Shown here in pieces: positions 2,948 through 19,807 of a DNA stretch of 64,000 bases. Every line of letters starts with the position of its first letter. Positions within the stretch are counted from its first letter, which is position 1. The notes beneath the pieces were generated by a model, which did no database searches, was not told the origin of the DNA, and saw only the letters and a list, made by a program, of their open reading frames with translations. A program made the position numbers and the translations under genes. The stretch is from Deltaproteobacteria bacterium (GTDB lineage Bacteria > Myxococcota_A > UBA9160 > SMWR01): contig JANNIY010000130.1 of assembly GCA_031405455.1 (NCBI GenBank), forward strand, positions 974-64,973, written 5' to 3'.

Positions 2948-3418
2948 ATGAACCGATGCAGCATGGCCACATCCGATGGAACGCGCAGCCCGTCGGAGCC
3001 GGCCCGGATTCGACTCCAGGCGCCGCTGCGCCGCTCGCTCGCACTTGCCGCCAGCTTGCTCGCCATCGGGTGCTCGACCCGCCAGGTCGAGGAGCCGGCG
3101 GGACGCGAAGTCTATCTGCGCCACTGCGCCGCCTGTCACGGCGACGCCGGGAAAGGCGACGGGCCGGTGGCGATCTCCCTGCGACAGCCGCCGTCGGATC
3201 TGACCACGATCGCCCGCCGCAACGGCGGCAGCTTCGACGAGCGGCGCGTGATGCAGGTGATCGATGGGCGCTCGCTCGTCGCGGCGCATGGCACGCGAAG
3301 CATGCCCGTGTGGGGCATCGTCTTCGAAGACGAACTCGAGGGCGAGCCGTATTCTGGATACACCTCGCTCCTGCGCTCGCGCAATCTGACGGATTATCTG
3401 CGTTCGATTCAGCAGTAG
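2948..3418 (+). CDS. c-type cytochrome lipoprotein (monohaem)
   Basis: ATG at 2948, lipobox LLAIGC, haem motif CAACH and a distal MPVWG. It is a paralogue of the CDS at 48679-49098. Confidence 0.8.
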   Translation: MNRCSMATSDGTRSPSEPARIRLQAPLRRSLALAASLLAIGCSTRQVEEPAGREVYLRHCAACHGDAGKGDGPVAISLRQPPSDLTTIARRNGGSFDERRVMQVIDGRSLVAAHGTRSMPVWGIVFEDELEGEPYSGYTSLLRSRNLTDYLRSIQQ

Positions 3419-3547
3419 TCCGGGTGGGGCGCACGCATCGGCTCGGAGACTCCCCGCGCCTGGCGGGATTCCCGTTGCGCCCCGCACCGGTCTGGGGCGG
3501 TTGTCGTCAGTTCGCGCGCTGCGCGTGCATGCGCTGACACCGCACGG

Positions 3548-3563
3548 CGGTACGCTCGTTGCA
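3548..3563 (+). promoter_or_regulatory. Sigma-54 type -24/-12 match (site B, GGTAC variant)
   Basis: CGGTACGCTCGTTGCA has a perfect TTGCA -12 element and correct spacing. The -12 C is 15 nt upstream of the ATG at 3577. Confidence 0.4.
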
Positions 3564-3576
3564 GGGGTGAAGCGGC

Positions 3577-4725
3577 ATGCGCGACGCTTCTCCCCTGCGT
3601 CCCCGGGCGCTCCCCGAGTTCGCAGACGTGCGCTCCCTTGCCGACCCTCGTCGGGGCCCTCTCGTCTCGCTCTACCTGCCGTTGCTGCGCGGCTTTCCGC
3701 ACGTGCGGCAGAACGCAGCCGCCTACCAGGGCGCCGTCGCGGAAGCCGAACTCCGACTCCAAGCCGCTGGCCTGTCCCCAGGCGAGGCCGCAGCCTCCGG
3801 CGAACAGCTCGCCGCCGTCGAAACGGATCTCCGGCGCTTCGAGCGCCGCGCGGCAGGCGTCGCCGTCTTTCGCGACCGCGCAACCCTTCACGCCTATGGC
3901 CTTCAGCAGGAGCCCGCGCGCTGCGTGATGGTTGCGGACAACTTTGCCCTGCGTCCGCTGCTGGCGGCCGTGCACCGCGACCGGCGCTACCACGTACTCG
4001 CGCTGTCGACGAATCGCGTTGCACTGTTCAAGGGGGATGCCTTCGGGCTGGCGACGATCCTGGCGCAGGGTGTACCCGCAAGCTTGGAGGATGCACTGGG
4101 GACCGAGCTGACCGCCAAGGAGCTACGCGTCAGTGGAACCCAAGCGGGCGCTGCCTCGCCGCGCTACTTCAGCCACGACAGCGGCCGCGACGAGCGCAAG
4201 CTCGATCTCAAGCGCTTTCATCTGCGAATCGCGCGCGCGATCGAGGCAGAACTCGTGGGCTGCGATGAGCCCCTCATCCTGGTCGCGGCACAAGCTCACC
4301 ATTCGGGATTGCGCGCCGCGCTGCGCCTGCCGTGCCTGCTTCCCACGGGTGTGGAGACCAGCCCAGATCATCTTTCGACGAGCGACCTGCACGCGCGTAC
4401 CTGGCCGCTCGTCGACGACGCCAGCGACGCAGAAGACGCGGCACTGGCGAGCGAGTACGAGGGCTTCGTCGCTCGCGGCAAGGGTCTGCACCGCATCAGC
4501 GACGTCGCGGCGGCCTCCGCTGCCGGGCGCGTACACCGGCTCTGGGTGACTCGCGACGAACGTCTGCCGGGGGCGATCGATCCCGCGAGCGGCGTGCTCG
4601 TCGGAGGCCGCCCCGAGGAGGACGTGCTCGACGGCATCGTCAGCCTGGTGCTGCGCCACGGCGGCGACGTGATCGTCAGCCGCTGCGTCCCGTCCGGCTC
4701 GAGCGTCGCAGCGGAGCTGCGCTGA
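3577..4725 (+). CDS. baeRF3-like protein (bacterial archaeo-eukaryotic release-factor family)
   Basis: 382 aa. Recalled family hallmarks are present: GPLVSLYLP near the N-terminus, RRYHVLALSTNRVALFKG in the middle, PLILVAAQ, and an acidic C-terminal domain. No database search was possible, so the family assignment is from memory. Confidence 0.6.
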   Translation: MRDASPLRPRALPEFADVRSLADPRRGPLVSLYLPLLRGFPHVRQNAAAYQGAVAEAELRLQAAGLSPGEAAASGEQLAAVETDLRRFERRAAGVAVFRDRATLHAYGLQQEPARCVMVADNFALRPLLAAVHRDRRYHVLALSTNRVALFKGDAFGLATILAQGVPASLEDALGTELTAKELRVSGTQAGAASPRYFSHDSGRDERKLDLKRFHLRIARAIEAELVGCDEPLILVAAQAHHSGLRAALRLPCLLPTGVETSPDHLSTSDLHARTWPLVDDASDAEDAALASEYEGFVARGKGLHRISDVAAASAAGRVHRLWVTRDERLPGAIDPASGVLVGGRPEEDVLDGIVSLVLRHGGDVIVSRCVPSGSSVAAELR

Positions 4726-4807
4726 TCCCATCCGCCCCGCCGCGCCGCCAGCACGGGACCTTCTGTCTCGCTCCGGACTCCGTGCGTGCCGTGCGTTCAT
4801 CTCGAAA

Positions 4808-4823
4808 CGGCACGCGTCTTGCT
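4808..4823 (+). promoter_or_regulatory. Sigma-54 type -24/-12 match (site C)
   Basis: CGGCACGCGTCTTGCT lies 50 nt upstream of the ATG at 4872. A strong SD (GGAGGGGAGAG) sits between them. Confidence 0.6.
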
Positions 4824-4871
4824 CCTCTACGCGGAGAGCGCAGCCAATCGCCTGCGCCAGGAGGGGAGAGC

Positions 4872-5078
4872 ATGCATCGCTCCGAAAGCGACCAGGGAAC
4901 CTCTTGCGCGGACTGCGGAGCGGCAGTTCTTGCGGGTGCGGAGGCCGGCTTCGACTTCGCTGAGGATGCCACGCTGTGCGCGAGCTGCGCGGCAAGGCGC
5001 GGTGGCTCCTACGACGCCCATCAGGAGCGCTGGGTGCGTCCGCCGCGAATCGCTGACCTCCTCGACGAGCCGCGCTGA
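4872..5078 (+). CDS. Small hypothetical protein with a CxxC...CxxC (Zn-ribbon-like) motif
   Basis: 68 aa: MHRSESDQGTSCADCGAAV...LCASCAARRG. The SD GGAGGGGAGAG is upstream. It lies inside the longer track ORF 4332-5078. Confidence 0.5.
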   Translation: MHRSESDQGTSCADCGAAVLAGAEAGFDFAEDATLCASCAARRGGSYDAHQERWVRPPRIADLLDEPR

Positions 5079-5122
5079 GCTGCGGCGCAAGCCAACGGCT
5101 TGCTGGGAACTCACCGAAGCAG

Positions 5123-5401
5123 GTGCAATCGGTGATGTCGCCCGAAGTACACACCTACAGGCCCGGCGATTCCATCGAAGACGTCGAGGCGACCCTGCGT
5201 CGCGCCCGGATCCGCCGTCTGCCCGTGGTCGACGAAGCCAAGCAACTGGTCGGAATCGTCTCGCTATCGGATTTGGCGCGGGCCGCGGCCCACTGTCGCC
5301 AGCAGAAGAAGCCCGCGGTCGGCGAGGCTGCCGTCGCGGAGACGCTCGCAGCCATCTGCCAGCCGCGGGAAACGGCGCCCCCTGAAGGCGCTGGAGACTG
5401 A
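5123..5401 (+). CDS. CBS domain protein (only one clear CBS repeat)
   Basis: VMSPEVHTYRPGDSIEDVEATLRRARIRRLPVVDEAKQLVGIVSLSDLARAA is a canonical single CBS motif. At 92 aa it is about half the usual CBS pair. Confidence 0.7.
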   Translation: MQSVMSPEVHTYRPGDSIEDVEATLRRARIRRLPVVDEAKQLVGIVSLSDLARAAAHCRQQKKPAVGEAAVAETLAAICQPRETAPPEGAGD

Positions 5402-5475
5402 GTCCAGCCCTTGCAAAACGCCAGGGCGAAGAGCACGCTCCGGCCGGGTTTTTCAACCATTGGAGGGAGTTTTAG

Positions 5476-5742
5476 ATGCGACGAGAACTAATCGCCGGCG
5501 CTGTCGCGGTAGGGATGCTCGGATTGGCGGGCTGCGCGACCAATGGCGACGTGGAAAAGATCAACAGCCGGCTCGATGCGCTCGACCAGCGAGTCGCGGG
5601 CGTCGAGACCGCTGCGCGCAACGCCGAGAGCCGCGCCACCGCCGCCGAGCAGGCTGCGGCCGACGCGCGGCGTGCCGCGCAGGCCGCCGAGGACTCGGCC
5701 CGCAAGTCCGAAGCGATCTTCCAGAAGCGGATCTCGAAGTAG
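5476..5742 (+). CDS. Braun-lipoprotein-like (Lpp-like) alanine-zipper lipoprotein
   Basis: SD GGAGGGAG is followed by the ATG. The signal carries lipobox LAGC. An Ala/Gln/Arg-rich coiled coil follows and the protein ends in a C-terminal Lys (KRISK), parallel to E. coli Lpp (LAGC...YRK). Confidence 0.85.
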   Translation: MRRELIAGAVAVGMLGLAGCATNGDVEKINSRLDALDQRVAGVETAARNAESRATAAEQAAADARRAAQAAEDSARKSEAIFQKRISK

Positions 5743-6660
5743 CCGACCCATTGGAGCGGTCTCTGGCGGCGGCAGCGTGCCCACCCGGGTGGGCACGCCG
5801 TTCGCGCGCGCGATCACACGCCGCACGGCAGCGATGTCTACGCGCTCGCCAAGACCGAGCGCTCGAGGCGTTTCGAGCGCCGCCGCCAGGGGGTCGGAGA
5901 TCCGACTGTAGACGTCCGGGTGCGCCTCGAGGAGCAGCTGGTCGCCTTCGCGCCCCCATTTGTACGGCTGGTAGACCAGCTGTAGCCGGGTACCCTCGCG
6001 AACGCGATCGTAGAGTCGGACGATGTCCTCCTCGTAGAATCGGACACAGCCGTGCGTCGCAATGCGCCCGATCGACCAGCGGACGTTGGTGCCGTGGAGC
6101 CCGTAGCTCGACGTCCCGATCGTCATCCAACGACTGCCGAGCGGGTTGTCGGGCCCGGGTGGAACGACGGCGGGGAGTTCGGGCTTGACCGCGCGAATCG
6201 ACGCCGGCACCCGCCACTCCGGCTCGCTGCGCTTCGCTCCGACGCGGTATTCGCCGACGGGCGTCGGATCGTCGGCATCGCCGATCGCCACGGCGAACAC
6301 CTCGGGGCCGTCCTCGACGCCGAAATCGTAGAGACGCATTTCCGGGATGTTCACGACGAGGCCCGCGGGCACCGCCTGCGGCAGCAGATAGCGCGTGGGG
6401 AGCCGCACGACCGTGCCGGGGTCGGGGATCCACGGGTCGAGGCCGGGATTCAACCGCGACACCGCTTCGAAGCCGAGCCGATGGCGCGCGGCGACGTCGA
6501 GCAACGTATCGTCGGGCAGCACGAAATCCGTCTGCACGACGCCCAGCGGCGGACGCAGAGCCGCGTAGACGTCGACTTCGGTTTCGCCCGCCGGGGGCGC
6601 GGCGCTCGCGCGCGCGGCGATCAGCAGCAAGGCGAGCGCCAGCCCGGGCGCCTGCCTGCG
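5488..6660 (-). CDS. L,D-transpeptidase with LysM-like + YkuD domains (ErfK/YbiS/YcfS architecture)
   Basis: LysM-like segment DTLLDVAARHRLGFEAVSRLNPGLDPWIPDPGTVVRLP. The YkuD core is SYGLHGTNVRWSIGRIATHGCVRF. The signal-like segment is RRQAPGLALALLLIAARASA. The 5' end is unresolved because no ATG/GTG/TTG lies near the signal. The frame has no stop before 5488. Confidence 0.8.
   Translation of the reverse strand, partial: RRQAPGLALALLLIAARASAAPPAGETEVDVYAALRPPLGVVQTDFVLPDDTLLDVAARHRLGFEAVSRLNPGLDPWIPDPGTVVRLPTRYLLPQAVPAGLVVNIPEMRLYDFGVEDGPEVFAVAIGDADDPTPVGEYRVGAKRSEPEWRVPASIRAVKPELPAVVPPGPDNPLGSRWMTIGTSSYGLHGTNVRWSIGRIATHGCVRFYEEDIVRLYDRVREGTRLQLVYQPYKWGREGDQLLLEAHPDVYSRISDPLAAALETPRALGLGERVDIAAVRRVIARANGVPTRVGTLPPPETAPMGRLLRDPLLEDRFGLAGRVLGGLRGTPRVGRSLLGGGGAALGVARSGLDARDSLVERIEPAVDLFHVAIGRAARQSEHPYRDSAGD
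5774..5797. terminator. Perfect 24-nt palindrome between convergent lpp-like and ldt genes
   Basis: GCGTGCCCACCCGGGTGGGCACGC lies 32 nt after the lpp-like stop. There is no U-tract, so it could be a bidirectional hairpin terminator or a protein-binding palindrome. Confidence 0.5.
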
Positions 6661-7272
6661 CCCGCGGCCGCGCTGCTCCTCGGCCTCTGGCTGGCCGGCT
6701 GCGCAGCCACTGCGCCCGCGCCGCCAGTCGCTTCTGCGCCCGGCGCACTCGACGGCTCGACCCCGCTGACGAGCGACGTAGCGTGCCCGCGCATCCAGTA
6801 CATCCTGATCCGCAAGCGCGAGCACCAGCTCGTGGCACGTTGCGAATCGGGGACGATGATCGTGATGACCGTCGCCATCGGCCGCGATCCCATCGGGACG
6901 AAGCAGGCGCACGGCGATCAACGCACGCCCGAGGGCAATTACCGGGTTTCCGGGTCGGCTCGTCACAGTCGTTTCCACCGCCTGATCCCCATCGACTATC
7001 CGTCGCGGCGCGACGCCGACGCGGCGCTCGCACGCGGCACGCTCACCGTGAGCGAGCATGCACGCATCGTCGCTGCGCACGCGCAAACTCGCACACCGCC
7101 GCAGGATACCGCGCTCGGCGGGCACCTTGGGCTGCATGGCGAGGGTCGGGAGTGGCGCGGCGAATCAGCGGGACTCGACTGGACGTACGGCTGCGTAGCG
7201 GTGCGCGACCATGAGATCGAATTCCTCGCACGGCGGGTGAGCCGCGGAACGTCCGTCTGGATCCTGCCGTAG
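6652..7272 (+). CDS. YafK-like L,D-transpeptidase-fold lipoprotein
   Basis: Lipobox LWLAGC. Motifs IQYILIRKREHQLVARCESG, GDQRTPEGNYRV, IPIDYPSRRD and HGEG...TYGCVAV parallel E. coli YafK (DpaA)-type proteins. The start codon is unresolved: in-frame CTG at 6652 or ATG at 6481. Confidence 0.7.
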   Translation: MPAPAAALLLGLWLAGCAATAPAPPVASAPGALDGSTPLTSDVACPRIQYILIRKREHQLVARCESGTMIVMTVAIGRDPIGTKQAHGDQRTPEGNYRVSGSARHSRFHRLIPIDYPSRRDADAALARGTLTVSEHARIVAAHAQTRTPPQDTALGGHLGLHGEGREWRGESAGLDWTYGCVAVRDHEIEFLARRVSRGTSVWILP

Positions 7273-7314: not shown

Positions 7315-8580
7315 TCAACCGGCGGAGGGGCCAGGCGAGTCGGCCCCGGGAAAGGCGACACGAAATTCGGTGCTCTCGCCGGGGGTGCTCGTCGCAGCGA
7401 TCGTCCCGCCGTGATCGGTCACGATGCCTTGGGCCACCATCAACCCCAGACCGTTGCCCTCGCCAGCCGGCTTCGTGGTGAAAAAAGGCTCGAAGATGCG
7501 CGGCAGATCTTGCTCGGCGATACCGGCGCCGGTGTCGGCGACACACAGCTCGATGCGACCCTCGGAGCCCGGGTGCAGCGATACGTGCAGGGTGCCGCCA
7601 TTCGGCATCGCGTCGGCGGCGTTGAGGAACAGATTCAAGAAGAGCTGTTGTAGCCGCTCGGGATCCGCGATCAGGCTCGGCGTCGGTTCGAACGCGCGCT
7701 CGACCTCGATACCGCGCCGCTTGAGCTTCTCCGACACGAAGGACAACGTGGTCTCGAGCAGCGGCTCGAGCGCAATCGGCACCCGCCGCCGGCGCCCCGG
7801 CCGCGCCATGTTGAGCAGCGTCTGGATGATCTTCGAGATGCGGGCGATCTGCTCCTGGATCGTCCGCAGCCGCCAGCGCGCCTGCTCGCCCGTCACCTCG
7901 GGCTCGAGCAGCTTCGCGTGCCCCTGGATCACGCCCATGGGCGTGCCGATTTCGTGGGCGAGCCCGGCGACCAGCGTGGCGATCGAAGCCAGCTCTTCCG
8001 CGGCCTTCGCCCGCGAGGCGGTCTGACGCAGCTCGGAGCCCTGCTCCTCGAAATCGCGCGCGAGGCGACGACTCTGCGCCTCGAGTTCGTGGGTGAGATA
8101 CTCGAGCCCGCTGTCGTGATCCTCGATGTACGCCTCGAGCGCGATCTGGGCGTCGAGCATCAGGAGTTTCTGGAGCGCGACCACCGTGCGCATCGCTCGC
8201 TCCGGGTCGGCCGCGTAGGTATCGAAGATCAGGGGTGTGAGCAGGGAGAGGTAGCCGGCGTAGGCGCCGAGGTACCAACGCGGCTCGAGACCGATCTTCT
8301 GGTGCACCTCGCCGATGCGCCGGCGCTGGGCGACAAAATCCTCGTCGAAGGTCGGGTTCGCGAGGCTGAGCAGATACTCGCGCTGCTTGATGAGGAGGCG
8401 TTCCTTCACTCCCGGCTCGCGGAGCAGCTCGCGGGTCGGGCCAAAGGAGAGCAGATTGCGATAGAAGGCCGCCACGAAACTCGCGGCGTTGCGCTCGAGG
8501 GCAGGCCCGAGCGCAGCGAGCAACTCCACGTCCGCCGCTGTCATTCCCAGGTAGCTGAGCTGCTGCTGAAGCTTGTTCAC
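7315..8580 (-). CDS. Globin-coupled sensor histidine kinase
   Basis: The N-terminal protoglobin/GCS-like domain reads FVAAFYRNLLSF...RRRIGEVHQKIGLEPRWYLGAYAGYL, with a candidate proximal His. The H-box is LAHEIGTPMG, the N-box NLFLNAADAM and the G-boxes DTGAGI / GNGLGLMVA. Start is a GTG at 8580 or an ATG at 8544/8676. Confidence 0.85.
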   Translation of the reverse strand: MNKLQQQLSYLGMTAADVELLAALGPALERNAASFVAAFYRNLLSFGPTRELLREPGVKERLLIKQREYLLSLANPTFDEDFVAQRRRIGEVHQKIGLEPRWYLGAYAGYLSLLTPLIFDTYAADPERAMRTVVALQKLLMLDAQIALEAYIEDHDSGLEYLTHELEAQSRRLARDFEEQGSELRQTASRAKAAEELASIATLVAGLAHEIGTPMGVIQGHAKLLEPEVTGEQARWRLRTIQEQIARISKIIQTLLNMARPGRRRRVPIALEPLLETTLSFVSEKLKRRGIEVERAFEPTPSLIADPERLQQLFLNLFLNAADAMPNGGTLHVSLHPGSEGRIELCVADTGAGIAEQDLPRIFEPFFTTKPAGEGNGLGLMVAQGIVTDHGGTIAATSTPGESTEFRVAFPGADSPGPSAG

Positions 8581-8726
8581 TCCCCACAGGGTCGGCGTCA
8601 CAGCCGGCAGAGTCAATGGCGGCCGCCCCCCCTCGCCCCACTCCCCCCGCCTGCTCGCAGGGGCGCTTCGACTCACCAGAGCCGCCCGCAGCGACGCAAC
8701 GCGGCGCCTGGCGGGTCGCGACCGCT

Positions 8727-8742
8727 TGGCACATCGAATGCA
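8727..8742 (+). promoter_or_regulatory. Sigma-54 type -24/-12 match (site D)
   Basis: TGGCACATCGAATGCA. The -12 C is 16 nt upstream of the ATG at 8757. Confidence 0.5.
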
Positions 8743-8756
8743 CCGGGAGTCGGCTC

Positions 8757-9230
8757 ATGCAGCGGGTCCCTACGCCGGAACGCACCCCCACCGCAATTCG
8801 CGAGCCGCGAAGCCCGCGCGTGCGCGACGTCATGCGGCGCGACTTCATCACGATTTCGCAGCAGGAGAGCGTGCTCGAGGCCCTGGAGCTGATGCGGCTC
8901 GCGCGCCTGCGTCATCTGACGATCGCCGATCAAGGCGTGCTGATCGGAATCCTCAGCTACCGAGACCTTCAAGACGAGCTGCTCGCACAGATCGACCCGG
9001 CGGCGGGGTTCCAGGGCGAGCCCGCGGTCCAACATTCCGCGGCCGTCGAGCACGTCTCGGGCTCTCCCTACTCGATCAGCCCGGATGCGACGCTTGCCGA
9101 AGCGGCGGCCCGGCTCGAGCGACTCCGCGTCGGCTGTCTGCCGGTCGTCGAACCGGGGGAACAGGGTCTGCGGGTCGTGGGCCTGCTCACGGAGATGGAT
9201 CTGCTGCGCGCCGCCTTTCAGACGCCCTGA
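8757..9230 (+). CDS. CBS domain pair protein
   Basis: Two CBS repeats: VRDVMRRDFITISQQESVLEALELM...LIGILSYRDL and VSGSPYSISPDATLAEAAARLERLRVGCLPVV...VVGLLTEMDLL. Confidence 0.85.
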   Translation: MQRVPTPERTPTAIREPRSPRVRDVMRRDFITISQQESVLEALELMRLARLRHLTIADQGVLIGILSYRDLQDELLAQIDPAAGFQGEPAVQHSAAVEHVSGSPYSISPDATLAEAAARLERLRVGCLPVVEPGEQGLRVVGLLTEMDLLRAAFQTP

Positions 9231-16146: not shown

Positions 16147-17868
16147 TTACGCGAGTAGCTCCGCCGCGATCGCACGCAGCTCGCGCTTCCAACCGTCTCG
16201 GTCCGTGTGCACGACACGCTGCGCAACCGCGGGCCATTCCTGCGGCGGCTCGAAGCGCGCGGCGCTGTGCGCGTGAAACTCCGGTCCGGCATCGGAGGCG
16301 TCGTTGCCCGCAGCTTCGCGACGGGCGAGGCGTTCGCGGGCAATCGGAGCCGCGCAGCGTGTTTCGAGAAAGAACGCGCGCGCACCCCGCTCGTGCGCGA
16401 AGACGCGGGCTCGCTCGCGGTCGGCGGCGCGCGCCCACGTGGCGTCGAGCAAAACCGTCCGACCCGAAGCGAGCACCGGCGCAGCGCGTTCGAGCAGCCC
16501 CGCGTACACGCGGTCCTGGCGAGCCGGATCGTAGAGGCCCGAGTCGAGCCCGGCGCCCACGCGCGCCGTCGGGTCGAGGCCCGCCTGGCGCTTTCTCACC
16601 CGGTCGGAGGCGACGACGACTCCGGACAGGGCTTCTGCGAGCCCCGCCGCCGCGCTGCTCTTCCCGGATCCCACGATTCCCCCGACCAGCACGAGCGCAC
16701 CGGTCCCGCCCGGCGCGAGCACCTGCAACGCGAGGTCGAGGTGGCGCCGTGCGCTTTCGGCGGCGCGCGCGCGCTGCGCTGGATCGATGGCCGCATCCTG
16801 CGCTGCCAGCGAGGCCACCTTCGCTCGCACGCCGGCGCGGTAGCTCGTGAAGAAATCGACGAGCGCGTAGAGATCGAAATCATCGCTCTCGCGCGCATAG
16901 CTGCGCAAGAAATGCTCCGCCCTGGCCGCTGCATCCCGGTAGCGCAGGTCCATCGCGGGGAAAGCGACTTCGGCCGCGGCATCGATGCGGCGCAAGGCCT
17001 CCGAGAACTCGAGGCAATCGATCGCAATCGGCTCCGCGTCGTCGCGTTCGAACCACAGGTGCTGCAGGTGGAGATCGCCGTGGCCGTCGACGGCGCGGCC
17101 CGCGAGCCGGCGGCGCTCGAAGCGCTCGGCATGCGCCTCGGCAAAGGCGCGAGTTCGCGTCTCGAGTTCGCGCAGCACTTCGCTCGAGAGCAGCGCAGGC
17201 ACCGCCCCCGCGAGCAGGCGCAGATTGTCTTCCACCGGGCCGATGCAGCGCTGCCGCCACTGCTCGGGCGTGAAGGGCGCGGGCGTCCCCAGAGCGTGGC
17301 GCTCGTGGAAGCGCGCGATCAGCACCGCCGCGCTTTCGAGCTGGGCGTCCGAGAGCGCATCGCGCGCGAGCAGGGAGAGCGCGTCACGGCCCGCAGGCAG
17401 ACGGCGCATCACCACACAATGCTCGGGCCCGGAGCCTCCGGCCGCCGGCTGCGCGAGCGTTCCCCCGATGGGTCCGATCCGCACGGGCCCCTGCATCAGC
17501 GGAGCGACTCCGAGGTAGACGTCCGGGGCAAGACGACGGTTGAGCGTCACTTCTCGCAGGCAATCGGCGTTGCGCTCCGCGCGGGTCGTGAAACACACGA
17601 AGGAAAGATCCACGGCTTTGCGGAACTTGTAGACGCGATCGCCCGTCAGGAAGAGCTGGGAGAGATGCGTCTGCACGCGCTCGACGCCGGCCGCGGCGCT
17701 GGGATCGTCCGGGTAGGCGCCGGCTGCGGCGAGCGCGCCGAGATCTTCCGGCGAAAGCGAGGCCTCGGAGCGCGCGCCTTCCCCGAGCACTGCGTCGCGC
17801 TTGATGGGGGGCACGGGCAGCGCGACGGCTAGGCTTCGCCCGTCGCCTTCAGCGTGAGAACGGGGCAC
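16147..17868 (-). CDS. Bifunctional APH-like phosphotransferase / P-loop kinase-like protein
   Basis: The N-terminal half has the APH/choline-kinase-like catalytic motif GHGDLHLQHLW. The C-terminal half has the P-loop GGIVGSGKSS. The 5' end overlaps the USP 3' end by about 40 nt, so the start is uncertain. Confidence 0.75.
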   Translation of the reverse strand: MPRSHAEGDGRSLAVALPVPPIKRDAVLGEGARSEASLSPEDLGALAAAGAYPDDPSAAAGVERVQTHLSQLFLTGDRVYKFRKAVDLSFVCFTTRAERNADCLREVTLNRRLAPDVYLGVAPLMQGPVRIGPIGGTLAQPAAGGSGPEHCVVMRRLPAGRDALSLLARDALSDAQLESAAVLIARFHERHALGTPAPFTPEQWRQRCIGPVEDNLRLLAGAVPALLSSEVLRELETRTRAFAEAHAERFERRRLAGRAVDGHGDLHLQHLWFERDDAEPIAIDCLEFSEALRRIDAAAEVAFPAMDLRYRDAAARAEHFLRSYARESDDFDLYALVDFFTSYRAGVRAKVASLAAQDAAIDPAQRARAAESARRHLDLALQVLAPGGTGALVLVGGIVGSGKSSAAAGLAEALSGVVVASDRVRKRQAGLDPTARVGAGLDSGLYDPARQDRVYAGLLERAAPVLASGRTVLLDATWARAADRERARVFAHERGARAFFLETRCAAPIARERLARREAAGNDASDAGPEFHAHSAARFEPPQEWPAVAQRVVHTDRDGWKRELRAIAAELLA

Positions 17869-18278
17869 GGTGCGATCCGGACCGTGCGCTCAGCGACACT
17901 GCCGAGCAACACGTGCTTGAAGCCGGAGAGTCCGCGCGTTCCCATCACGATCAGGTCGGCGCCGATGCGCTCGGCCGTGGTCGCGATCGCTTCCGAGGGA
18001 AAGATCGGAGAGACTTCGGACTCCACGGCGATTTTCTGGCTCTCCACCTTCGCCCGCCATTCCTTCAGCTGCTTCGTCGCGGCTTCGCGGATGTCGCGAT
18101 CGAAGCTCTCGGGGATGACGAGGCCGTAGGGCGAAATCGCACCCACGTTGATCTGGTAGCAATGCAGAAGATGGAGTTTCGATCCGAACACCTTCGCGAG
18201 TTCGATCGCGGTCTCGAGCGCCCGCGAGGAGTGCGTCGAGAAGTCGACGGGAACGAGGATCTTGCGAAAGCCGGTCAT
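17829..18278 (-). CDS. Universal stress protein (UspA family)
   Basis: SD AAGGGAGGA precedes the ATG at 18278. KILVPVDFS at the N-terminus and the ATP-binding motif GTRGLSGFKHVLLGSVAERTV are present. Confidence 0.9.
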   Translation of the reverse strand: MTGFRKILVPVDFSTHSSRALETAIELAKVFGSKLHLLHCYQINVGAISPYGLVIPESFDRDIREAATKQLKEWRAKVESQKIAVESEVSPIFPSEAIATTAERIGADLIVMGTRGLSGFKHVLLGSVAERTVRIAPCPVLTLKATGEA

Positions 18279-18325
18279 GGGTCCTCCCTTGGCCAGGTCC
18301 AACCCGGCAACCTTCCCCTGGCTAA

Positions 18326-18341
18326 AGCAGATCACGTGCCA
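18326..18341 (-). promoter_or_regulatory. Sigma-54 type -24/-12 match (site F)
   Basis: The minus strand reads TGGCACGTGATCTGCT. It is intergenic, with the -12 C 49 nt upstream of the USP ATG. Confidence 0.65.
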
Positions 18342-18475
18342 AGCGGTCGCGGCGATGCAGGCGCCACCAACCTGAAATTCCATTCAGCGACTGGGTTGAT
18401 AGGGAACAGTCCTAGCCGAAAACGTAGCCCATTGCCACAGTTTTAGGTTCGCGCGAGCCAGCGAAATCAGATGGA

Positions 18476-18898
18476 TCACGCGCGTTCGGAGATCGCCGCC
18501 ACGAGGCCTTCCTCGCGTTTTTCGTGGTCGACCAGCACCGCGCACCAGTGCGCGAGCGCCTCCTGGGAGGCGGCGGCAGGCACCTGATCGAGCCGCTCGC
18601 CGAGTCGGCGCAGATCCGCGAGCAGGCTCGCATGCTCGCGCTCGAGCGCCTCGAGATCCGCCGACCGGGAAGGCGAAAGGCCGTGAAGCGCCGGAAAAAA
18701 GAAGCCTTGCTCGAGATCGAAGTGCGCAGCGAGGGCGACCTCGAAGCGATCCAGGGCGCTGCGCGCGTCGCTCAATGCACCGCGTCCGAGCGCGACTTCG
18801 ATCTCGCGCCGCAGCGCGGAAAGGTGGCGGTGTTGGTCCAAGGTCTGCTGTACGAGACGCTTCACCCGCAGCTGGAGACCCGTATCGAAGATCGGCAT
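18476..18898 (-). CDS. Hemerythrin-like (HHE cation-binding) domain protein
   Basis: 140 aa, all-helical. Spaced His/Glu/Asp ligand motifs are HRHL..., AAHFDLEQGFFFP, LEREH and LVDHEKRE. Confidence 0.7.
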   Translation of the reverse strand: MPIFDTGLQLRVKRLVQQTLDQHRHLSALRREIEVALGRGALSDARSALDRFEVALAAHFDLEQGFFFPALHGLSPSRSADLEALEREHASLLADLRRLGERLDQVPAAASQEALAHWCAVLVDHEKREEGLVAAISERA

Positions 18899-18957
18899 GC
18901 GGCGAGGTCACTCCTCTTCTTGCGCGCGGCGGGGCGCTTCCGCTGGCAAAGACTACC

Positions 18958-18973
18958 CGCAAACAGCGTGCCA
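18958..18973 (-). promoter_or_regulatory. Sigma-54 type -24/-12 match (site G)
   Basis: The minus strand reads TGGCACGCTGTTTGCG, an almost perfect TGGCACG-N4-TTGC. It lies 61 nt upstream of the hemerythrin ATG, with SD AGAGGAG in between. Confidence 0.65.
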
Positions 18974-19007
18974 GAAACCCCGGCGGATCGTTATCCCCTG
19001 CCCCGAC

Positions 19008-19355
19008 GTGGCCGAACGCATCCTGGTGATCGACGACGAGCCCGATCTGCTCGAGCTCGTGAGGGTGAACCTGCAACAGGCGGCTCTCTGGCTCGATTCC
19101 GGCCGCCACCGTTGCTTCGTCGCCGGCGTCGAAGTGATGCTCACGTCGGAAGAGTTCGGCCTGCTCGCCCGCTTGCTGGGCCCCCCCGGCCGCGTGATGA
19201 CGCGCGATTTTCTGATCCAGCACGTCTGGGGCGCCGACATCTCGGTCAAGGCCCGCACCATCGACACGCACCTCAAGCGCCTGCGCGAGAAACTGGGGCC
19301 GGCTGGCGACCTGATCGAGCCGGTGCGCGGGGCCGGCTATCGATTCGCAGAGTGA
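19008..19355 (+). CDS. Receiver-less OmpR/PhoB-type winged-helix protein (truncated paralogue of the 21332-22012 gene)
   Basis: The GTG start gives (M)AERILVIDDEPDLLELVRVNLQQA. This is joined directly to ...RHRCFVAGVEVMLTSEEF...RTIDTHLKRLREKLGPAGDLIEPVRGAGYRFAE. About 111 aa are absent, including the phospho-acceptor Asp region. Confidence 0.6.
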   Translation: MAERILVIDDEPDLLELVRVNLQQAALWLDSGRHRCFVAGVEVMLTSEEFGLLARLLGPPGRVMTRDFLIQHVWGADISVKARTIDTHLKRLREKLGPAGDLIEPVRGAGYRFAE

Positions 19356-19807
19356 GCGCTACGGCGGCTGACTCGCCGCGCGACACGCCCCTGGAAGCCG
19401 TGCCCGAAAGCCAACGCAAGCTCGTGGTCGCTCTCGCCGGGGATCGGCCCGCGTTGGCCTGGGCCGATCGCCGCGCCTGCGAGCAAATCCTCTCGAACCT
19501 TCTCGACAATGCGATCCAGTACACGGAGCCGGGCGGCAACATCGCGCTGCGGATCGCCAGCGACGATCGAGACTTGCGCATCGAAATACGTGATACCGGA
19601 ATCGGAATCTCCGAACGAAATCTCGCGCGGATCTTCGAGCGCTGCTACCGCGTCGACCAGGCGCGCTCGCGCGCCCAGGGCGGAACGGGGCTCGGCCTCG
19701 CCATCGTGAAGCACCAGGTGCAGAGCCTCGGCGGCACGATCCAGGTCGAAAGCCAGCTCGGGCGCGGCTCGACGTTTGCCTTCACGCTGCCGCGGCACGC
19801 GAGCTGA
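19352..19807 (+). CDS. HATPase_c-only remnant of a PhoR-like kinase (truncated paralogue of the 22009-23826 gene)
   Basis: The GTG overlaps the upstream stop (GTGA). The first ~30 aa match the PhoR-like N-terminus (SPRD...VP.SQR.LV.AL). The sequence then jumps to AWADRRACEQILSNLLDNAIQYTEPGG...DTGIGI...GGTGLGLAIV. TM, HAMP, PAS and HisKA are missing. Confidence 0.55.
   Translation: MSATAADSPRDTPLEAVPESQRKLVVALAGDRPALAWADRRACEQILSNLLDNAIQYTEPGGNIALRIASDDRDLRIEIRDTGIGISERNLARIFERCYRVDQARSRAQGGTGLGLAIVKHQVQSLGGTIQVESQLGRGSTFAFTLPRHAS

Follow-up and report, generated by a model that had tools for sequence, protein, structure and literature searches.

A probable sigma-54-driven Balon-family locus with a neighbouring zinc-ribbon gene and a 5′-deleted CBS-pair remnant in an uncultured Myxococcota-type bacterium

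Three consecutive open reading frames (ORFs) on the forward strand, between positions 3548 and 5401 of a 64,000-nucleotide stretch of contig JANNIY010000130.1 (GenBank assembly GCA_031405455.1, Deltaproteobacteria bacterium; the whole stretch is called the window, G+C ~68%), raise the question of what kind of unit they form and how they are expressed. A preliminary description had taken them for a trio of a baeRF3-like protein, a zinc-ribbon (Zn-ribbon) mini-protein and a half-size CBS protein, each behind its own -24/-12 element, that would form an uncharacterised translation-arrest or translation-rescue branch of a stress regulon. The ORF listing and direct reading place all three ORFs exactly where they had been claimed. 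We consider it likely that the segment belongs to a stress island under sigma-54 control in an uncultured bacterium of the Myxococcota type, and that it comprises a sigma-54-driven gene of the Balon family of ribosome hibernation factors (ORF1), followed by a Zn-ribbon gene (ORF2) and by what is left of a CBS-pair gene after a 5′ deletion (ORF3).

The assignment of ORF1 is carried by profile matches and by a structural model. Residues 137-318 match the Pfam hidden Markov model PF18845 (baeRF_family3) with an E-value of 1.5e-28 and 100.7 bits, above the cut-off of 31.5, so the baeRF3 call was correct; weaker Pfam matches to sister baeRF families were also obtained. Because the sequence of Balon itself (AOC03_06830), recovered from a PDB alignment, matches PF18845 at 105.6 bits, "baeRF3" is the Balon family. 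The best NCBIfam match of ORF1 is NF052287, "AOC03_06830 family ribosome hibernation factor" (residues 19-366, E 1e-19). Searching PDB sequences with ORF1 as a single sequence returned nothing relevant, and a profile of 30 homologues (alignment A1) matches Balon (8rd8_B) end to end at an E-value of 4e-26. When the AlphaFold 2 (AF2) model of ORF1 (predicted local distance difference test, pLDDT, 88.4; predicted template-modelling score, pTM, 0.82) was searched with Foldseek, the best match was ribosome-bound Balon (8rdv_B, E 6.5e-19, template-modelling (TM) score 0.73/0.77), followed by 8rdw_B, 8rd8_B, 8v9j_z and 8v9l_z. These top five are all Balon and Msmeg1130 structures (TM 0.70-0.77); aRF1 comes after them, Rv2629 (8v9k_z) is seventh, and eRF1 and Pelota rank behind Balon and Msmeg1130. 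The expected aeRF1/Pelota-like fold is thereby borne out, and we conclude that ORF1 is, by profile and predicted structure, a full-length, new and divergent Balon-family protein with a three-domain aeRF1-like fold. We found 56 homologues in total, the majority of them metagenomic, exactly 382 amino acids (aa) long and with the same N-terminus; the named genomes among them are Myxococcota or "delta proteobacterium" metagenome-assembled genomes.

The suggestion that no member of this family has a characterised function is outdated, since Balon itself belongs to PF18845. By cryo-electron microscopy, in vitro translation and knock-out, Balon was identified as a ribosome hibernation factor of the A site (Helena-Bueno et al. 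2024, PMC10901736). Together with its mycobacterial homologues it occupies the A site jointly with EF-Tu, inhibits translation ~15-fold and aids recovery from long stationary phase, and the family occurs in ~20% of bacteria, mostly within stress operons (PMC10901736). Burroughs & Aravind 2019 had earlier predicted a non-catalytic translational shutdown (PMC6514570). ORF1 has in common with Balon (from Psychrobacter urativorans; PDB 8RD8, 8RDV, 8RDW), Msmeg1130 and Rv2629 not only PF18845 and the three-domain fold, but also a place in a stress-response gene cluster, the lack of conserved NIKS and GGQ motifs and, where GGQ would lie, a loop that varies. Its C-terminal domain apparently carries an insert where Balon has a beta-hairpin. 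The putative insert, residues ~326-349, aligns to this hairpin region of the EF-Tu-facing domain of Balon and forms short strands in the model.

Expression of ORF1 and ORF2 appears to depend on two sigma-54-type promoters, P1 and P2. Sites were scored out of 12 against the consensus TGGCACG-N4-TTGCW, with its GG-N10-GC core. A loose -24/-12 pattern search gave no enrichment in the window; with GG and GC required, 11 window sites scored at least 10/12 compared with 4.7 expected, and 4 scored at least 11/12 compared with 0.27 expected. P1 is kept as CGGTAYG-N4-TTGCA with 13-nt spacing in L001, L002, L004, L008-L012, L014 and L036 (L numbers denote related loci, P followed by four digits homologous proteins), and it lies 13 nt before the ATG in every close relative. 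It is also present in a sister clade, at 26 nt from the ATG and together with a GGAGG ribosome-binding site. P2 scores 11-12/12 in L008, L009, L010, L015, L016 and L036, where the spacer between the Balon and Zn genes measures ~150-167 nt, and is absent in L001, L004 and L013, where the spacer is 32-49 nt and the two genes are presumably co-transcribed. The blocks GGTA..TTGCA and GGCACG..TTGCT are invariant amid otherwise diverged intergenic DNA, and both promoters are shared by loci with protein identities of only 66-75%. The leader between P2 and ORF2 contains the ribosome-binding site GGAGGGGAG. Neither a sigma-70-like promoter nor a convincing terminator was found on searching positions 3300-5900. 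An inverted repeat, GCGCAG...CTGCGC, is present in the same leader (4834-4871) right before the ribosome-binding site in 5 loci; we do not claim a hairpin here, as the folding-energy z-score is -0.23 and alignments A8/A9 have almost no covariation.

Of the elements that had been placed before each unit, those of the Balon and Zn genes are real and that of the CBS gene is not: between 4950 and 5135 the best GG-N10-GC site scores 7/12, and in relatives the CBS gene follows the Zn gene by 60 nt with only a ribosome-binding site between them. The junction of the deletion described below carries GGCTTGCT at 5092-5101, which resembles the -12 half of the relatives' P2 (GCGGCTTGCT) and lacks a -24 GG partner; it may be the source of the third promoter of the preliminary description. 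Further upstream, a conserved block with the pattern CTGGGGC(A/G)G..TC..CAG precedes P1, and its TGGGGC and CAG columns are invariant in 11 orthologous upstream regions (alignment A7). This block may be a binding site of the activator introduced below or of another regulator, and it stands nearer to the promoter than enhancer sites typically do.

At three genes, those for the activator, Balon and an intact CBS pair, the -24/-12 element lies 13-14 nt before the ATG, and both element and spacing are kept in L001, L002, L004 and L011. With the GC of the element at -13/-12, this spacing would put the start of transcription ~3 nt before the ATG, and we infer that mRNAs of the P1 type are essentially leaderless. 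The combination of leaderless mRNA with sigma-54 was not found in the literature searched around Myxococcus.

An NtrC-type sigma-54 activator, encoded ~1.9 kb upstream of ORF1 and syntenic in L001, L002 and L036, is the likely candidate regulator of P1 and P2. A sensor histidine kinase with a protoglobin domain, syntenic in L001 and L002, is a likely candidate for its gas- or redox-sensing partner. Genes for a USP and a hemerythrin, which have matching -24/-12 elements, likely belong to the same putative oxygen/redox stress regulon. The idea of a sigma-54 stress regulon that takes in USP and CBS genes is supported, with matching sites before both. The USP and hemerythrin genes adjoin a histidine-kinase-like ORF (18524-19807, forward strand).

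Several observations weigh against a sigma-54-driven Balon gene as we describe it. Pairwise identity between ORF1 and Balon is only ~21%, and ORF1 scores 71.3 bits on NF052287 against an equivalog cut-off of 330 and 13.4 bits on NF052288 (MSMEG_1130) against one of 480. Because it falls below both NCBIfam cut-offs, ORF1 represents, at the level of its sequence, a distinct subfamily that is the equivalog of neither characterised protein (AOC03_06830, MSMEG_1130). In the profile alignment, the decoding-centre HP motif of Balon falls on F40-P41, followed by H42, so that the position reads F-P-H; Pro is common in the clade at this position and His is not, and the HP motif appears not to be conserved in ORF1 at the sequence level. 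The leaderless reading hinges on the usual distance from the -12 element to the start, and several relatives have a GAGGAGG-like sequence within the 13 nt, which would be relevant for read-through transcripts only. Finally, it is synteny alone from which the activator is paired with P1 and P2. ORF1 also differs from Balon in its apparent sigma-54 dependence and in its operon partners: a Zn-ribbon mini-protein together with a CBS protein here, RaiA, Hsp20 or RtcB for Balon.

ORF3 had been described as a half-size CBS unit, that is, as a protein built with a single repeat. It has one Pfam CBS match (residues 3-56) and not the two tandem repeats of a Bateman module, and public gene calls place its start at ATG 5135, giving 88 aa. 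Comparison with orthologues yields another picture: at the same position L010 and L042-L044 encode CBS pairs of 162 aa, the closest database relatives (P0059-P0062) have 154-161 aa and two repeats, and ORF3 matches residues 71-160 of the L010 protein (162 aa) with 70-71% identity. From the stop codon of the Zn gene to the homologous codon there are 44 nt in the window and 273 nt in L010, and the DNA alignment has one clean gap. With the deletion went the ribosome-binding site (AGGAGG), the start codon and all of the first CBS repeat. An assembly artefact was ruled out as its cause, since the truncated layout is identical in 5 independent assemblies from other sequencing runs. An 88-aa CBS protein in L036 was considered as an independent truncation and rejected, as it results from a frameshift inside an otherwise full-length gene. 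ORF3 is still open and has AGGTG 9 nt before ATG 5135, and its ratio of non-synonymous to synonymous substitution rates (dN/dS) of 0.25-0.29, which equals that of comparisons between intact genes (0.29-0.31), cannot separate a recent deletion from retained function; pairwise values over long branches miss relaxation after a recent deletion. Read from its sequence, ORF3 is thus the second repeat and C-terminal tail of a CBS-pair gene, of doubtful function, and the truncation suggests that this genome can do without at least the CBS partner.

ORF2 is a real gene, as the preliminary description had it, with conserved copies elsewhere and a dN/dS of 0.10-0.38 against six orthologues, values indicative of purifying selection. 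Its knuckles, C12-x2-C15 and C36-x2-C39, are invariant at all four Cys in 11 homologues, as is the RGG-x-Y-D...W...P tail. Copies that are 72-82% identical follow the Balon gene in L001/L003, L004, L008, L009, L010, L013, L015, L016, L036 and L042-L044; a copy with 44-51% identity stands upstream of Balon in two distant loci (L018 and L024, where Balon is 42-43% identical), and the gene is absent beside Balon in 4 close relatives (L002, L011, L021, L025). ORF2 has no significant match in Pfam or NCBIfam and no sequence match in the PDB, and its model (pLDDT 73) has no Foldseek match at E <1. A profile search of 1.84 billion representative sequences recovered 284 proteins at E ≤1e-3, with 111 of them at E ≤1e-10, nearly all stand-alone proteins of 62-80 aa with the pattern MHRxE..CxxCG..(17-20 aa)..LCxxCAxRRGGxYD..W..P (window 4872-5078, P0121-P0270). 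We conclude that ORF2 is one of a family of ~70-aa proteins that lacks annotation. Its four-Cys CxxC...CxxC knuckles are like those of the DksA/TraR C4 zinc finger (zf-dskA_traR, PF01258) and of TA0289-type proteins, although ORF2 has a spacer of 20 residues between the knuckles where DksA/TraR has 17, and it has no coiled coil. It scores 15.9 bits on PF01258 against a cut-off of 24.9, and hhalign against the finger of a CBS-DksA fusion protein gives a probability of 11%, so we do not claim homology to DksA/TraR, which is unproven from the sequences.

Are these proteins, then, a rescue system by design? That the three genes form an uncharacterised translation-rescue trio, with a deliberate single-CBS half unit and a sigma-54 promoter for each gene, has on its side that the ORFs, the family call and two of the promoters are real, and that ORF3 is intact, with its AGGTG and its low dN/dS. 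This reading is nonetheless largely refuted, and we hold it very unlikely: the family was characterised in 2024, the third promoter was not found, the orthologues of ORF3 are full CBS pairs where the window has a clean 229-bp deletion, and the dN/dS values are blind to relaxation of this kind. A related possibility is that ORF1 has catalytic or rescue activity, like a peptidyl-tRNA hydrolase or Pelota, and is not a passive hibernation factor. Its fold is that of aeRF1/Pelota, Burroughs & Aravind left room for catalysis in a few baeRF families (PMC6514570), the loop of ORF1 that takes the place of GGQ contains GTQ, and homologues sporadically have GGQ itself (3 of 30, including P0009 and P0053). 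In the window protein, however, GGQ is missing and the GTQ lies in a non-conserved loop (residues 178-200) that is disordered in the AF2 model (pLDDT <50) and deleted in P0031, P0032, P0034 and P0035; the Gln is not conserved, the position being TQ, TR or TG; NIKS occurs in 0 of 30 homologues; and the nearest structures are the non-catalytic Balons. We therefore regard catalysis by ORF1 as highly improbable, and "hibernation" is a more apt word than "rescue" for what a protein of this kind would do.

A third possibility concerns the neighbours, namely that Balon has dedicated partners in the Zn-ribbon protein and the CBS module, which would bind Balon or the ribosome and make hibernation depend on adenylate, redox or metal status. 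CBS and zinc-finger proteins do recur beside Balon. Seven loci of the sister clade, in which Balon identity is 40-48% (L005, L006, L007, L019, L022, L023, L026), have a fusion gene directly downstream of Balon; its product, of ~270 aa, combines a CBS pair with a coiled coil and a genuine DksA/TraR-type C4 zinc finger (PF01258, E 4.8e-10), and this fusion protein could be a putative hibernation-associated regulator. Across 42-100% Balon identity, the Zn gene occurs with Balon in two gene orders, and among distant members of the Zn family, that of L045 has a CBS pair directly after it and that of L048 has an HPF-cold-shock chimera and a CBS-DksA fusion as neighbours. In archaea, the hibernation factors HibA and Dri contain CBS modules as integral parts, and the affinity of the HibA module decreases from AMP through ADP to ATP (PMC13324472); in mycobacteria, the Balon homologue lies near the CBS protein Hrp1 (PMC10901736); and PMC7521041 cites TA0289, in which a Zn ribbon is fused to a CBS protein. 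The window locus resembles HibA/Dri in tying a CBS (Bateman) module to a ribosome-silencing factor. In HibA and Dri, however, the CBS module forms one protein with an HPF/RaiA domain and has been seen on the ribosome, whereas here it is a separate, truncated gene beside Balon, known from its sequence. A dedicated partnership is also hard to reconcile with 4 close relatives that have Balon and no Zn gene, with 4 that have the Zn gene and no CBS gene, and with the truncated CBS gene of this genome. The further distant Zn-family members adjoin genes for a ribonucleotide reductase, an OPT transporter, a cyclic-nucleotide-(cNMP-)binding protein or a Usp fragment, with no Balon or CBS gene nearby. 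We accordingly rejected the notion that the Zn family always stands beside Balon or CBS genes: of 7 distant members, 2 have CBS or HPF-related neighbours and 5 do not. A functional link between Balon and CBS or zinc-finger proteins is plausible but unproven, and we consider dedicated partnership possible, if on balance doubtful, and return to Balon hibernation under sigma-54 control as the reading that we favour.

The gene neighbourhood is shared with L001, L002 and L036. In the conserved order, the NtrC-type sigma-54 activator (reverse strand) is followed by a cytochrome c gene and Balon (both forward), by slots for the Zn and CBS genes that are filled in only part of the loci, and then by an Lpp-like lipoprotein gene (forward), YkuD and the protoglobin sensor kinase (both reverse), a CBS pair and GlnE (both forward). 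The gene trio is kept in other genomes, as had been expected, with the relatives' CBS gene being a full pair. The features are listed in Table 1.

Table 1. Coordinates of the Balon-family locus, its putative regulatory elements and related genes (window positions unless a locus is named)
Feature	Position	Strand	Remarks
NtrC-type sigma-54 activator gene (receiver + AAA+ + HTH_8)	252-1666, including promoter	-	Pfam; ATG 1637
-24/-12 element of activator gene	1666-1651	-	13 nt before ATG 1637
Conserved upstream block, possible regulator site	3492-3510	+	CTGGGGC(A/G)G..TC..CAG; ~40 nt upstream of the -24 element of P1
Sigma-54-type promoter P1	3548-3563	+	CGGTACG-N4-TTGCA; ends 13 nt before Balon ATG; 10/12
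ORF1, Balon-family gene	3577-4725	+	382 aa; ORF listing and direct reading
Sigma-54-type promoter P2	4808-4823	+	CGGCACG-N4-TTGCT; 48 nt before Zn-ribbon ATG; 11/12
ORF2, Cys4 zinc-ribbon-like protein gene	4872-5078	+	68 aa; ORF listing and direct reading
Deletion junction	5079-5122	+	~229 bp lost relative to orthologous loci; alignment A3 with L010, L009, L016, L036
ORF3, single-CBS remnant	5123-5401	+	92 codons from GTG 5123; 88 from ATG 5135
Protoglobin-HisKA-HATPase sensor histidine kinase gene	7315-8676	-	Pfam Protoglobin E 2.7e-37, HisKA, HATPase_c
Second, intact CBS-pair gene	8727-9230, including promoter	+	157 aa from ATG 8757
-24/-12 element of intact CBS-pair gene	8727-8742	+	14 nt before ATG 8757
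USP gene	17829-18383	-	11/12 -24/-12 element at 18341-18326
Hemerythrin gene	18476-18898	-	11/12 -24/-12 element at 18973-18958
CBS-DksA fusion genes	L005 7118-7927; L007 5611-6411; L019 5200-6012		Also in L022, L023, L026
CBS-DksA fusion gene beside HPF-cold-shock chimera	L048 2447-3565	-	Unrelated contig; fusions span ~270-372 aa

Two observations on the flanking genes are recorded here. The lipoprotein gene (5476-5742, forward strand; alanine zipper, lipobox LAGC, Pfam E 8.8e-8) is conserved and lies wholly antisense to the last ~85 codons of the YkuD ORF (5488-7137, reverse strand); public gene calls retain the long YkuD ORF and mostly omit the lipoprotein gene, and one of these overlapping readings is probably wrong. 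In relatives, the locus also includes an Hsp20 gene, preceded by a sigma-54 site of 11/12, and a GroEL-like gene (L001 9407-9969 and L042 857-2476, both reverse strand), which are absent from the corresponding position in the window.

From synteny, motifs and family membership, the following order of events would account for the locus. The protoglobin kinase would sense gas or redox state and phosphorylate the NtrC-type activator, which would then open the sigma-54 promoters of its own gene, of Balon, of the Zn(-CBS) unit, of the second CBS pair and of the USP and hemerythrin genes. Balon mRNA would start from P1 with essentially no leader, and P2 would drive the Zn-ribbon gene and, in relatives, the co-transcribed CBS-pair gene. 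ORF1 would fill the ribosomal A site and hold ribosomes inactive during stress.

This gene content is analogous to the DosR (hypoxia) regulon of Mycobacterium tuberculosis, which includes the Balon homologue Rv2629, the CBS-pair protein Hrp1 and USPs. The likeness lies in the placing of Balon, CBS pairs, a USP and haem- or iron-based oxygen-binding domains (here the protoglobin kinase and hemerythrin) under one signal-responsive regulator. Unlike the sigma-70 system of DosS/DosT-DosR, the window has an NtrC-type sigma-54 activator and a protoglobin kinase, and regulon membership is assigned from promoter motifs only.

Balon was found only in 2024, and little is known about its regulation and partners. 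What is new here is a divergent family member with lineage-specific regulation and neighbours, the kind of protein being already known, and two attractive readings of the locus, an uncharacterised family and a single-CBS protein by design, have been corrected. It is the accessory Zn/CBS pair and the promoter geometry that merit further study. We think it rather unlikely that Balon, the Zn family and a CBS module couple entry into or exit from hibernation to energy, redox or metal status, all from leaderless sigma-54 mRNAs; if they do, such mRNAs could be translated while canonical initiation is shut down. The locus offers three leads for the family: a conserved control circuit of sigma-54 and protoglobin kinase for a Balon gene, a ~70-aa zinc-ribbon protein family that is named in no database, and a recurrent link of Balon with CBS or zinc-finger proteins that echoes the CBS-bearing hibernation factors of archaea.

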